Below, piece by piece: positions 43,042 through 63,925 of a DNA stretch of 64,000 nt. Every line of letters begins with the position of its first letter. Within the stretch, counting starts at the first letter, position 1. Below the pieces are notes generated by a model. The model had not been told where the DNA came from. It did no database searches and saw only the letters and a list, made by a program, of their open reading frames with translations. The position numbers and the translations under genes are program-made. The stretch is from contig CP066684.1 in assembly GCA_016432325.1 (NCBI GenBank), positions 640,001 through 704,000 on the forward strand, given 5' to 3'. This stretch comes from Candidatus Aenigmatarchaeota archaeon. GTDB lineage: Archaea; Aenigmatarchaeota; Aenigmatarchaeia; PWEA01; JACQIF01.

Positions 43042-43136
43042 GTTGGCGCCCCCGGTGATGCACACTTTTTAAGAAAAAGTGTGGGCAAAAAACGACGTCC
43101 GTGCGACCTAAGATATAGAGGTTGGCGCCCCCGGTG
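43042..43136. repeat. 16-bp direct repeat of the tRNA-Arg 3' end flanking a type-A hairpin element (43061-43093)
   Basis: GTTGGCGCCCCCGGTG at 43042-43057 and 43121-43136. Confidence 0.85.
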
Positions 43137-43232
43137 GGATTCGAACCCACGACCCCTTGCTTAGGAGGCTTGCACGCCTTGAACCGAGATCCAAAAACAA
43201 AGTGCTCTGAATCCAAACTGAGCTACGAGGGC
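43123..43232 (-). tRNA. tRNA-Arg(CCU) with one intron at 29/30 (43170-43199); CCA encoded
   Basis: GCCCTCG/CGGGGGC acceptor; BHB GCAC-TT|T..GTGC-AA|G restores CTTGC CT CCT AA GCAAG. Confidence 0.92.
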
Positions 43233-43285
43233 ACTGTCCGAATTAACGAGAAGGTTTATTTAACTCTTCCTTCCGGGATATTCGC

Positions 43286-43648
43286 ATGCAAACCCTCGAT
43301 GGCGACGCCCTGAAACAGGACGACGCTATGAGGCTCAGCGGCGACGTGGAACTCAGGTTCGTCCATTACAACGAGCTGCAAGGCCTGCGGGATTTCAACG
43401 GGCGGCTGAGGGAGCTTTCGCTGCGCATGTATTTCCCCGTCTTCAAGAAGTCGGGCGACGGCCGCACATTCTTCGACCCGGCGCTGGTCAAGCCCGATGG
43501 CCTGACAGGGGAAGATTTCAGCTACTACGAAAGCGGGCGCCTGCGCGCGACGTGGCATGAGTGCGACGACTCCGAGGGAATGGGCGGTTGGGTCTCGTTC
43601 TACCTGAGCGCCGAAGAGGTCAGGACGCTTGCAAAGGAAGCGGCCTAG
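43286..43648 (+). CDS. hypothetical protein
   Basis: ORF after TTTATTTAA. Confidence 0.6.
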   Translation: MQTLDGDALKQDDAMRLSGDVELRFVHYNELQGLRDFNGRLRELSLRMYFPVFKKSGDGRTFFDPALVKPDGLTGEDFSYYESGRLRATWHECDDSEGMGGWVSFYLSAEEVRTLAKEAA

Positions 43649-60850: not shown

Positions 60851-62677
60851 TCACCCAAGCTCCGCATTGACTCTCTGCATCACGGCCTCCGGGCTGGCGT
60901 AGTACACGGATATTATCTTCGAGACGTCCCTGTAGTCGGTTATCTTGCGCGCGCGCATCCATTCCAGCACTTTAGCTCGGTTCCCAACCTCGTTCTTTAT
61001 ATCGTCTTCCCTGACGCCGGTCTGCTCGGAAAGCCGCTTCAGTATGTAAGAGCCTTTTGCCGACACGAATGTATCGGTCTTCGGTTCCCATGCGAAGGCT
61101 TCGTGCGCCACCGGAACGTTCTTGTCCCTGTCGAAGCCCGCTATCTCGTAAACGGACGCGACGCGCCTCGCGTAGCCGTGCTTCTTCTTCTCGCGCTTCA
61201 GGAAGACGACCATATCCAGCGTTTCAATCAGGGACGGCGAGAGGTTTATCGGGGCCGTGACGAGACGGTCCATGAGTTTCTCCATGTCTTCGGCGTGTAT
61301 CGTCGAAAGGCCCGTGTGGCCCGTAGCGATTTGTTGGAACAACACGTACGCTTCCTGGCCGCGAACCTCTCCGACTATGATGTAATCGGGCCGTTGCCTC
61401 AGCGACGATTTCAGGAGGTCGAAAAGGTCCACCTTGCCGTACTCCTTCTCGCCCATGCTCGAGATGGCTTCGCGCGCCACTTCCGGAACCCAGTGCGGGT
61501 GGGTGAGCTTCAGCTCAGGAGTGTCTTCTATCGAAACTATCTTCATCTCCGGTCGTATGAACAGACTGAGCACGTTAAGAAACGTCGTCTTGCCGGTTGC
61601 CGTGCCGCCGGAGACGAGGATGCTCTTGCCGTGTTCTATGCAGTACCAGAAGTAGGCCATCATAAGCGAATCGCACGTGCCGAAGTCTATGAAGTCCGTC
61701 GGCGTGAGCGGTTGCTCTGTGAACTTTCTTATCGTGAAGTTTGAGCCGCGCCGCGCGATGTCCGTGCTTAGCGTCGCCTGCAGACGCGAACCGTCCGGCA
61801 ACGCCGCGTCAACGAGGGGTTCGGCCATCGATACGGAGCGACCGGCCTTCTGCGCGAGACGGAACACGAACGAGTCCAGCTCGTCGCGGTCCTCGAAGAC
61901 GATGTTCGTCGGCACAGAGCCTATGCGCGGGTTCCTGTGGTAGATGAAAATGGGTATTCCGGTGCCGTCGCACGATATGTCCTCGATATAGGGGTCGTGC
62001 ATCAGCGGCTCTATCTTGCCCAACCCGATGAAGTCGCGTTTGATGTAGTAGACGAGAATCGCCTTCTTTGCGGGGTCCGGATTCGCTTCGAGGACCCGTA
62101 TGACTTCGTCTATCTTCTGTTCGAGGTAGCGTTCGGCCTCCGTACTCGTGACCTTCGTGAAAGAGACGTCGAGCCGTTCCTGTAATGTATCCTTGATGCG
62201 CTTGAGAACCACCGCGTCCTCCTTGCTCAACTGCGGTTCGACGACGGCATAAACGACCGAATGCGTGGACGGATTCCACGTGATGTGCGCGTACGCGAAT
62301 ATGCGCTCTCCTTTGGCCGGTTTCGCCGGCACGAGCGGATAGACGGCGTTGATTGTTCTGATATCGTCTTCTTCGTTAGCCGACGCCTTGGCCTTGGCCA
62401 TCTGTACCTTCGGCAGTTTGAGGAGCCGGCTCTCAGGAAGCGTCGCCGACTTGCCCTTCTCGACTATCTCTATCTTCACAGGTTCGTTCTGCCGCGGCAG
62501 CCCGGTCGGGATGGCATATCCGGCGATTGGCCGGCCTTCGGCGACGCTCACAGGGAACCCCGTGCCGTAACCGCCGCCCGGCGCGCCCCCTATCCTCCAC
62601 TTCCCCGCTGTTTCGAGAAGCTCCGGATGCTTCTGCGCGGCGTCCTTGAGCAGCCGGACGAGTTTGTTGACTCTCAT
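60851..62677 (-). CDS. type IV pilus / archaellum-type assembly ATPase
   Basis: IEDISC.G, LPDGSR, FTIRKF, GGTATGKTT, IEDTPEL, LRQRPD...VGEVRG, TGH. Confidence 0.95.
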   Translation of the reverse strand: MRVNKLVRLLKDAAQKHPELLETAGKWRIGGAPGGGYGTGFPVSVAEGRPIAGYAIPTGLPRQNEPVKIEIVEKGKSATLPESRLLKLPKVQMAKAKASANEEDDIRTINAVYPLVPAKPAKGERIFAYAHITWNPSTHSVVYAVVEPQLSKEDAVVLKRIKDTLQERLDVSFTKVTSTEAERYLEQKIDEVIRVLEANPDPAKKAILVYYIKRDFIGLGKIEPLMHDPYIEDISCDGTGIPIFIYHRNPRIGSVPTNIVFEDRDELDSFVFRLAQKAGRSVSMAEPLVDAALPDGSRLQATLSTDIARRGSNFTIRKFTEQPLTPTDFIDFGTCDSLMMAYFWYCIEHGKSILVSGGTATGKTTFLNVLSLFIRPEMKIVSIEDTPELKLTHPHWVPEVAREAISSMGEKEYGKVDLFDLLKSSLRQRPDYIIVGEVRGQEAYVLFQQIATGHTGLSTIHAEDMEKLMDRLVTAPINLSPSLIETLDMVVFLKREKKKHGYARRVASVYEIAGFDRDKNVPVAHEAFAWEPKTDTFVSAKGSYILKRLSEQTGVREDDIKNEVGNRAKVLEWMRARKITDYRDVSKIISVYYASPEAVMQRVNAELG

Positions 62678-62759
62678 CGTAGCACCAGACAGATTTGCAT
62701 TTTTCAGTATATGAAACTGCGGTTTCAAACGTCCGTCGTGCTGAGATCGACGGACAATA

Positions 62760-63233
62760 TCATATCGACGGTCTGAGCAGGCGTATCGTTTTGCCGGCCC
62801 GACTGCCCTCGATTCTTATCGCGCCCGCCGAGCTTGAAACCGTGCCCGATACGAGATATGCGCCGGCCACGCCCTCTATATCCATCGTGGAGTTGGCGTT
62901 GTCTGACAACACGATGAGCCGCGCGCCGTCCGCGGCCACCGTGTACTCGCCCATCGATATCTCTTTAGGTATCTCAATCGTCACGGACGCGCTGGAGCTG
63001 TACGACAGTTCCTTGGCAACGCGTTCCATTCCTGTCATGACGAGCGCGCCTGCTTCGTTGAGCTGGTCGTCTTCTGCCAGCCCGGCGACGCGGTCGCTTA
63101 TCGCGCGGAAGCTGAAGAGTATGCTGAGCGTGATGACAAGCCCTATCGTGAAGAGGAACATCTGCTCGATTGTGAGGCTCTGCCCCTTCCTGCCCTCTAG
63201 GGCGGGAAGCTCGTTCTTGCATGCACGCATCAC
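62760..63233 (-). CDS. archaeal pilin-like protein (class III signal peptide)
   Basis: RKGQSLTIE followed by a hydrophobic helix. Confidence 0.8.
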   Translation of the reverse strand: MMRACKNELPALEGRKGQSLTIEQMFLFTIGLVITLSILFSFRAISDRVAGLAEDDQLNEAGALVMTGMERVAKELSYSSSASVTIEIPKEISMGEYTVAADGARLIVLSDNANSTMDIEGVAGAYLVSGTVSSSAGAIRIEGSRAGKTIRLLRPSI

Positions 63234-63925
63234 TCGAACCTCAGAACGATGTTCACGACGTTCAGGTCCCTACCGTCAGAGCCGCCGCCCTTTATCGTGT
63301 CGACGCCTTCGTGGACTATCGTTATGTCGTGCGTCCCCTGCCCGACGACGTCGCGCCCGCTGGTCTTCAGGTTTATCAGGTTGCCGACGCTTCCTGCCAC
63401 GGTCTCCCTGTATGCCAACGTAAGCTCGACGCTGAAGCCGCCGTCGATCGCCTCTGAGAACGCTTTTAGCGCGCCCGCGTTGGATGTTATGGGAACGACC
63501 GTGCGGTTGTCCCCGGAGAGGTAGATGTCAGAGCCCGTCGCTATTATCTGACCCGTCGTTTTGAAAGAAACCGAAACTTCGTCGTTGTATCCGTTGTCCG
63601 CAAGCCTGAGTTCTCCGGGGACGTCCACGTTCTCTATGCGTTCGCGCCCGCCGGAAGCAGCGACGCGCTCTATCTTCTCGTCCATGTCCTTCATGAGCCG
63701 CTCCATGTTGTTCATAGTCACTGTGTCCTTCTGCTTCTCGATCAGCGGGACGCCCCAGAAGTACGCGGCAGAGACGAGCACGATGAGTATGCCCGTGAGC
63801 AGCACGGCCGTGACGAGTTGCGACTGTCCTTTCACACTTTTAGAAAAAGTGTGTACGGCAACACCTGTTGCCGACATGCCGAAAAGCCGCGCTTTTCGTG
63901 CATGGGCAAAACACGGATGCTTCAT
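63230..63925 (-). CDS. archaeal pilin-like protein (class III signal peptide) with a palindrome-encoded leader
   Basis: KGQSQLVTAVLL..I......AY.WG.P. Confidence 0.85.
   Translation of the reverse strand: MKHPCFAHARKARLFGMSATGVAVHTFSKSVKGQSQLVTAVLLTGILIVLVSAAYFWGVPLIEKQKDTVTMNNMERLMKDMDEKIERVAASGGRERIENVDVPGELRLADNGYNDEVSVSFKTTGQIIATGSDIYLSGDNRTVVPITSNAGALKAFSEAIDGGFSVELTLAYRETVAGSVGNLINLKTSGRDVVGQGTHDITIVHEGVDTIKGGGSDGRDLNVVNIVLRFE
63833..63912. mobile_element. Type-A element with nested type-B element (63851-63903), in frame in the prepilin leader
   Basis: CACACTTTTAGAAAAAGT[GTGTACG-hp-CGACATGCCG-hp-CGTGCAT]GGGCAAAAC. Confidence 0.75.

Follow-up and report, generated by a model that had tools for sequence, protein, structure and literature searches.

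Families of bulge-helix-bulge (BHB) introns have transposed among the tRNA genes of Thermoproteales, where, according to the summary consulted here, gain probably took place at the DNA level by a mechanism that is not known (Fujishima et al. 2010, summarized in PMC4090602). REP and REPIN sequences, which are palindromes bearing a GTAG or CGTC tag, are mobilized by RAYT, an IS200-like Y1 transposase (PMC3733652). The repeat that we compare with these systems, type A, came to light in a 64,000-nucleotide stretch of DNA (the window) that comprises positions 640,001-704,000 of the single-contig genome of a groundwater Candidatus Aenigmatarchaeota archaeon (874,869 bp, 56% GC; labeled G000, its sister species G001). 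Type A is a small modular DNA repeat of about 35 nt without a gene of its own. The best explanation of the evidence as a whole, in which we have moderate confidence, is that it is a mobile hairpin-plus-tail module acting at the DNA level, whose surviving copies lie in harmless sites, tRNA introns among them.

In each unit a tail follows a hairpin of 9-10 bp, whose inner half pairs four or five T residues with four or five A residues around a loop of 2-3 nt; the outer 4-5 bp are variable yet paired (CACAC/GTGTG, CACGC/GCGTG, CGAGC/GCTCG, and GAAGC/GCTTC). One purine and then GCAAAA(A)C make up the tail, often with GACG next. The A-run of the hairpin and that of the tail are invariably 8 nt apart, and their lengths are correlated (rho 0.44) among copies that are themselves mutually related. 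Combined regular-expression, nhmmer, and split-arm searches of G000 found 16 copies, 13 with a clear tail and 3 degenerate. A strict descriptor of the uninterrupted form matches the genome seven times, against a mean of 0.025 over 40 shuffles, and the T/A hairpin alone occurs 12 times, against 0-4 in shuffles. The family is real and not a product of chance. A MAFFT alignment set the left arms out of register; descriptor searches and a covariation count with unconstrained arms were used. Rfam holds no family matching the module in the window or at the bacterial and Methanosarcina loci discussed below, and we found no published description of it in the literature.

The distribution of the copies is strongly skewed toward tRNA introns and tRNA ends; enrichment in introns had been foreseen in the initial annotation of the window. 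Thirteen of the 16 copies lie in or beside a tRNA gene, eight of them intronic and five touching tRNA ends. Twelve fall within tRNA genes extended by 100 nt on either side, a compartment that makes up 1.5% of the genome (binomial P ~3e-19), and the thirteenth begins 118 nt upstream of its tRNA. Orientation is equally uneven: all eight intronic copies have the same sense as the tRNA, as do all tRNA-borne copies inspected in relatives, and 14 of the 16 share the sense of their host gene. The remaining two are antisense, and one of these is translated within a pilin leader.

Intron-laden tRNA genes explain the near-failure of standard tRNA tools on this genome: ARAGORN called no tRNA across the window, and Rfam finds just eight full tRNAs genome-wide, since almost every tRNA gene is interrupted by between one and three introns. 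A finder of our own for the acceptor and T arms was usable only with a CCA filter, and open-frame spans around the copies were uninformative, the genome being GC-rich. Exons and splice sites were read by hand from the sequence. Read in this way, the eight intronic copies occupy the canonical intron of tRNA-Ser(GGA), the canonical and D-arm introns of tRNA-His, position 53/54 of tRNA-Ile, position 17/18 of tRNA-Ala(CGC), the canonical intron of tRNA-Glu(CUC), and both the D-loop and the T-loop of a tRNA at genome position 622477. Six tRNAs thus carry type A, in introns of the anticodon loop, D-loop, D-arm, and T-arm, and for each of them, namely Ser(GGA), His(GUG), Ile, Ala(CGC), Glu(CUC), and the one at 622477, joining the exons as read by hand gives back the acceptor, D, anticodon, and T arms.

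In all eight intronic copies the hairpin begins 0-2 nt past the hand-drawn 5' splice site, and this constant position suggests that type A is used in splicing. In tRNA-Ile, tRNA-His, and tRNA-Glu a helix joins the 3' end of the intron to the last bases of the upstream exon, and an unpaired tail of 10-25 nt lies between the type A hairpin and this exon-intron helix. The hairpin would therefore sit at the place of the intron-side helix in a relaxed BHB, a motif that is relaxed at best. In the tRNA-Ile fold the tail itself pairs with the T-tract plus loop. G000 has a single gene for the splicing endonuclease EndA (genome 849757-850362, minus strand; L063:958-1563), which encodes an alpha-type protein of 201 amino acids with a six-residue insertion relative to that of M. 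jannaschii and a gap-free alignment to the Lys-rich loop of the N. equitans alpha subunit. This insertion is the L3 loop, which has been linked to a broad substrate range and to disrupted tRNA genes in DPANN archaea (PMC5829648). We predict that the enzyme of G000 is able to cut noncanonical sites.

Outside introns, type A occurs in tRNA 5' leaders, after CCA, at start and stop codons, and in a cleaved pilin leader. Copies at gene ends are often flanked by duplicates of the end that they interrupt, 16, 12, 10, 9, and 7 nt in length. The copy at window position 43061 has a perfect 16-nt tRNA 3' end on either side of it. Those at 60431 and at genome positions 784523 and 829688 lie in tRNA 5' leaders, between a 9-12-nt duplicate of the first bases of the tRNA and the real tRNA, and in these leader cassettes the upstream duplicate is found about 25 nt past a TATA-like box. 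At genome position 862605 the start of the NAC gene is present twice, as the flanks GTGAAAAT and ATGAAAAT; the copy at genome position 849736 overlaps the TGA stop codon of endA, that at 620680 abuts a CCA end, and that at window position 63833 lies 12 nt into a prepilin gene. A different hairpin of 24 nt, upstream of a tRNA at genome 24990-25120, is associated with a perfect 21-nt direct duplication of positions -12 to +9; target duplication of variable length is thus a trait of hairpin inserts in G000 in general. We also asked whether the duplicated 5' end pairs with the spacer of the leader cassettes in a BHB-like manner; only 4-bp matches at inconsistent distances were found, and these we judged to be chance. 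The duplicated gene ends flanking nonintronic copies, and the in-frame copy within the prepilin leader, had not been recorded in the initial annotation.

Evidence of movement comes from sites that are filled in one of the two sister species and empty in the other. The ortholog in G001 of the tRNA at 43126-43232 is without the 3' cassette. The prepilin ortholog in G001 has a short leader, MQHRATKGQS, with no insert and no long duplication. At the tRNA leader that carries the A+B composite described below, the ortholog shares promoter, duplicate, tail, and spacer, and carries a type A with a different stem and without the 51-nt element B.

Element B is a twin hairpin with the consensus GTG(T/C)A, hairpin 1 (CGNNAA core), (A/G)CATG(T/C), hairpin 2, and T(A/G)CA(C/T). 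About 17 copies with perfect stems are present in G000, several of them in tRNA introns. Three type A copies contain B at the junction of hairpin and tail; these align end to end over 84 nt, have the same sharp ends and unrelated flanks, and differ by compensatory changes in all three stems. The 84-nt A+B sequence is therefore one composite that spread as a unit to the pilin leader, the tRNA leader, and the NAC start, rather than the outcome of three separate hits. Three other nestings are each within a hairpin loop: that of the type A copy at 60431, that of a D-loop intron module at genome position 620459, and that of the T-loop module at 60690, whose uninterrupted form is present in G001. 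An apparent match to B in G001, inside a coding region, proved spurious.

Two further intron modules belong with type A. A 34-nt D module (GCGCCTTTTTGC..GCAAAAACCCGCGGGAAA) occurs in the window at 921-955 and 60569-60604 and elsewhere in the genome at 60906, 620459, 620612, and 292919; four of the copies are in D-loops and two in T-loops, and thus the same intron sequence is found at two tRNA positions. A type A-like T-loop module occupies the same position in six tRNAs. In tRNA-His the T-loop intron made of this module is present only in G000. Its absence from G001, G013, G019, and G004 marks it as a gain in the G000 lineage. The canonical intron of tRNA-His gives the opposite picture: it holds type A in G000, G001, G013, and G019, members of both families of the order that could be compared, with stems that read CGAGC/GCTCG or CAAGC/GCTTG. 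A type A copy shared by two families in this way shows that the module is old, and that some copies have been kept under structural constraint.

These comparisons, for which the initial annotation had called, bear on most of what it proposed. The four type A copies that it described are all present (Table 1). Two of them are interrupted by a double hairpin, within the loop at 60431 and between hairpin and tail at 63833, and the related TTTTGC..GCAAAA hairpins exist at 49047-49091, in both D-loop introns (921-955 and 60569-60604), and in the T-loop intron at 60690-60747. Nesting is real, an orthologous site without the nested element is present in G001, and introns are indeed enlarged by nested hairpins. 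Its proposal that the elements target each other fared less well. Hairpin loops look like favored landing sites, and our data point weakly to such targeting; with the three junction composites counted as one unit, about two independent nestings into type A are left, which is too few, and targeting is not demonstrable because independent events are scarce and selection restricts the survivors to neutral DNA. The idea of a pile-up in splice-neutral sites agrees with the concentration in tRNA introns and at tRNA ends, and is wrong insofar as it implies only junk, for the tRNA-His intron retains type A in two families, with compensatory changes in the stem. As for the seeding of introns, at least one intron of a related module is a lineage gain in G000; seeding itself is something that we infer.

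Table 1. Type A copies and associated features of the window (window coordinates)
Feature	Position	Strand	Description
Type A copy 1	43061-43097	+	Hairpin 43061-43083 = CACACTTTTT-AAG-AAAAAGTGTG; tail 43084-43097 = GGCAAAAAACGACG; downstream of minus-strand tRNA 3' end
16-nt perfect direct repeat GTTGGCGCCCCCGGTG, duplicate of tRNA 3' end	43042-43057	.	Partner at 43121-43136; longest direct repeat
Second copy of 16-nt repeat GTTGGCGCCCCCGGTG	43121-43136	.	Real 3' end of tRNA 43126-43232 (minus strand)
Type A copy 2	58645-58679	-	In tRNA-Ile sense; core of 53/54 intron; hairpin 1 nt past inferred 5' splice site (hand-read exons)
Multi-intron tRNA-Ile gene that carries copy 2	58587-58776	-	Weak Rfam match and hand reading
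10-nt duplicate of tRNA 5' end GGGCTGGTGG	60416-60425	+	About 25 nt past TATA-like box, upstream of copy 3
Type A copy 3	60431-60516	+	Left arm 60431-60439; right arm and tail 60490-60516; loop split by insert
Nested twin hairpin with CGGAA/TTCCG cores	60440-60489	+	Atypical B-family member of about 50 nt in hairpin loop of copy 3
tRNA gene with D-loop intron 60569-60604 and T-loop intron module 60690-60747 (module interrupted)	60549-60798	+	
A+B composite	63833-63915	+	A hairpin 63833-63853; B twin hairpin 63854-63904 (51 nt); A tail 63905-63915
Prepilin gene	63230-63925	-	Composite adds 27 codons in frame, after MKHP and before KGQS
Related long palindrome GAAGGTTTTTGCGC...GCGCAAAAAGCTTC	49047-49091	.	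Intergenic
D-loop intron module GCGCCTTTTTGCCGCGGCAAAAACCCGCGGGAAA	921-955	+	One of 6 genome copies

The window holds one further structure of this kind: a twin hairpin of the CTTCGAAC type at 5775-5818, within the large-subunit rRNA gene (3786-6989), a gene that exceeds the Rfam model by about 200 nt. This twin hairpin may represent either an intron of the rRNA or an insertion.

To follow the spread of type A, we searched 151 genomes of the class and placed no constraint on the outer arms; a reversed-pattern control gave almost no matches. The module is present in 31 of the 151, with a patchy distribution and up to 27 copies per genome. Among 51 distinct copies, 45 have Watson-Crick pairs at all four free outer positions, in at least nine stem variants. 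Relatives carry type A as the core of canonical introns in tRNA-Glu, tRNA-Arg, tRNA-Val, and tRNA-His and in D-loop and T-loop introns; it also lies directly after CCA, and in two genomes (G031 and G050) the TAA of its TAAGCTT serves as a stop codon. One genome, G028, has type A at seven loci in a repeat of about 100 nt that is always antisense and 0-2 nt before the start codon, with AGGAT in the hairpin loop and a CCTCC-containing stem upstream.

Type A is not confined to Archaea. The exact 26-mer AAGCTTTTGAAAAAGCTTGAGCAAAAC, with its AAGC/GCTT stem, is present in Clostridia, both isolates and metagenome-assembled genomes, and in Poribacteria, as a module of intergenic multi-hairpin repeats beside ordinary genes. 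At least 80 loci contain the 26-mer, and among the matches listed 52 are bacterial and 28 archaeal; by our own estimate from base composition, the pattern would be expected by chance less than once in the whole collection. We found no enzyme gene linked to the bacterial repeats, and a BLAST search with the bacterial composite repeat returned only unannotated fecal phage fragments and no plasmid. Since the module occurs in bacteria without such introns, archaeal splicing is not a requirement for type A. Its presence in both domains could stem from a common origin, from transfer, or from convergence. The exact consensus has no match in viral contigs; a looser pattern finds a single intergenic copy in each of two IMG/VR contigs, one of them beside Mu-like baseplate genes.

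How might such a module move? We suggest that type A copies are made at the DNA level and that G000 encodes no dedicated transposase for them. The most likely route would be polymerase template switching, or repair, at stalled hairpins, processes that would yield target duplications of variable length, filler bases, and insertions into hairpin loops. Copies would then survive only where they are harmless, as in excised intron RNA, in leaders and trailers, and at gene ends restored by duplication. Beside the 5' cut of a loop-bearing splicing endonuclease, the hairpin could act as the intron-side helix, and a type A copy together with a short exon-complementary stretch could produce a new intron or enlarge an existing one.

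The search for enzymes is in keeping with this scheme to the extent that no candidate emerged. G000 is without a Y1 transposase (PF01797), TnpB, or reverse transcriptase, and no partner insertion sequence (IS) was found; three of the 151 genomes hold both type A and a Y1 transposase, against about six expected by chance, and there is thus no association between the two. Two tyrosine-recombinase genes lie beside tRNAs, at genome 289344-289823 and 783238-783720, the second adjoining the tRNA with the A+B cassette in its leader. Neither gene shows an evident connection with the cassettes, and both may belong to integrated elements.

Several observations weigh against a mobile module copied in this fashion. 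No enzyme, intermediate, or within-population polymorphism has been seen: four DNA runs, which come from one study and possibly from the source sample, and whose contigs break at repeats, show one form only. Template switching is itself a step that we infer, and it leaves unexplained the retention of the same 26-mer across domains. The splice sites on which the intronic positions depend are putative, having been read by hand only. Long conservation in tRNA-His fits a functional RNA element as well as a mobile one. The pilin insertion has no long target duplication, and duplication is thus not obligatory. Finally, the duplicate begins exactly at position +1 of the tRNA in four tRNA cassettes, which a random staggered cut does not predict. 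A broader formulation, in which type A is a cross-domain mobile DNA unit (DPANN, Methanosarcinales, Clostridia, and Poribacteria), copied by an undescribed mechanism, whether structure-driven or enzymatic, settling at gene ends by duplication and providing raw material for tRNA introns wherever the endonuclease has a broad range, is one that we offer only tentatively.

Among the alternatives, the one that deserves most attention holds that type A is a functional RNA signal meaning "cut here," placed directly 3' of a cleavage site (the 5' splice site, CCA, or an mRNA end), used by EndA or another nuclease, and selected rather than spreading. It would account for the hairpin starting 0-2 nt past the inferred 5' splice sites and past CCA, both at genome position 620680 and in a relative, for the overlap with stop codons (the TGA of endA and the TAA within TAAGCTT), for the shared sense with the host gene, and for order-wide conservation with compensatory stem changes. 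We nevertheless consider it rather doubtful, since it does not accommodate the two antisense copies, one of which is translated in the pilin leader, the gain and loss of copies between sister species, or the G028 module, which lies antisense and directly upstream of start codons. Nor does it fit the occurrence of the module in bacteria, which lack EndA, and it leaves the gene-end duplicates that flank the copies unexplained. A structure-prone instability motif, which through an intrastrand triplex or a switch in pairing causes local breakage and rearrangement, seems improbable, even though the conserved parts of type A are precisely the T-tract, the A-tract, and the A-run of the tail, the spacing of the A-runs is fixed and their lengths vary together (among related copies), the tRNA-Ile tail can pair with the T-tract plus loop, and triplex motifs are tied to rearranged loci in bacteria (PMC4666352). 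The tail fails to mirror the purine arm exactly, having GC and then the A-run where G and then the A-run are required; about 3 nt is all that is available to span the outer stem, and the orientation with transcription is left unexplained.

We regard as very improbable a route through RNA, in which an excised type A intron is reverse-spliced and then copied into DNA. The strictly sense orientation within tRNAs and the recurrence of the same module at different tRNA positions, as with the D module in D-loops and T-loops, are what such a route would predict; the lack of a reverse transcriptase in G000, the two copies antisense to their host gene, the DNA-level direct duplications around gene-end copies, and the module in bacteria all speak against it. 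That the copies are ordinary transcription terminators, or chance, is hardly credible. There is a run of four or five T in each copy, and several copies lie just past gene ends, yet eight are within tRNA genes, upstream of essential exons, in the sense orientation no T-run follows the hairpin, and the strict descriptor count far exceeds that in shuffled sequence. The initial annotation would have been refuted if terminators accounted for all copies; with half of them upstream of essential tRNA exons, terminators cannot. An intrinsic terminator was likewise rejected as a model for the single unit, given the A-rich tail after the hairpin and the half of the copies that are inside tRNA genes.

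A mobile DNA-level module that survives in harmless sites remains the reading that we prefer, and its interest lies in what it may say about introns. Reviews, and a 2026 preprint on tRNA introns in Asgard archaea, treat the route by which archaeal tRNA introns arrive as open. Type A is short and countable, provides the core for introns at several positions of the tRNA, and has filled and empty sites between sister species; it shares a repeat population with at least one lineage-specific intron gain, and it is also met away from introns, even beyond Archaea. With such a module, the origin of archaeal tRNA introns becomes a testable question. Type A is a visible candidate source of such introns. 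If it is their source, then in archaea with a broad-range endonuclease the module supplies raw material for new and enlarged tRNA introns.

Among known systems, the transposed intron families of Thermoproteales are the nearest precedent, as far as the published summary describes them. In them, as with type A, introns of similar sequence recur in tRNAs that are unrelated and at positions that differ, and the host has a splicing endonuclease of broad specificity, a predicted one in G000. By the same account they differ in that the unit shared here is a 35-nt hairpin-plus-tail module instead of a whole intron, and the host belongs to DPANN; type A also lies at gene ends, within a leader peptide, and in bacterial genomes, takes part in nested inserts, and is accompanied by duplicated gene ends outside introns. 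A miniature inverted-repeat transposable element was considered and set aside: the arms act as inverted repeats, but the duplications vary from 0 to 21 nt and no partner IS was found.

The remaining parallels are more partial. Like REP and REPIN sequences, type A is a palindromic repeat in the 20-40-bp range with a conserved single-stranded tag, and its many copies are patchily distributed, have stems that co-vary, and tend to form clusters and stacks; unlike them, it has no GTAG or CGTC tag (the 5' flank is variable and the 3' side reads RGCAAAA) and no Y1 transposase in G000, and most copies are within structural RNA genes, not between genes. The bacterial intrastrand triplex repeats TMECO/BoxC (Holder et al. 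2015, PMC4666352) also join a pyrimidine arm and a purine arm to a second purine tract, and are abundant, conserved, and linked to variable loci, whereas type A is short and A/T-based, and its A-runs form a mirror while the flanking GC does not. In integrative elements that restore tRNA ends, and in the model proposed for the disrupted tRNA-Thr of Caldiarchaeum (PMC3293823), the end of the tRNA is doubled around the insert and the gene stays intact, as it does around type A. Those elements are at least 1.8 kb long, whereas the inserts described here measure 45-120 nt, carry no recombinase gene, and are bordered by duplicates of only 7-21 nt.

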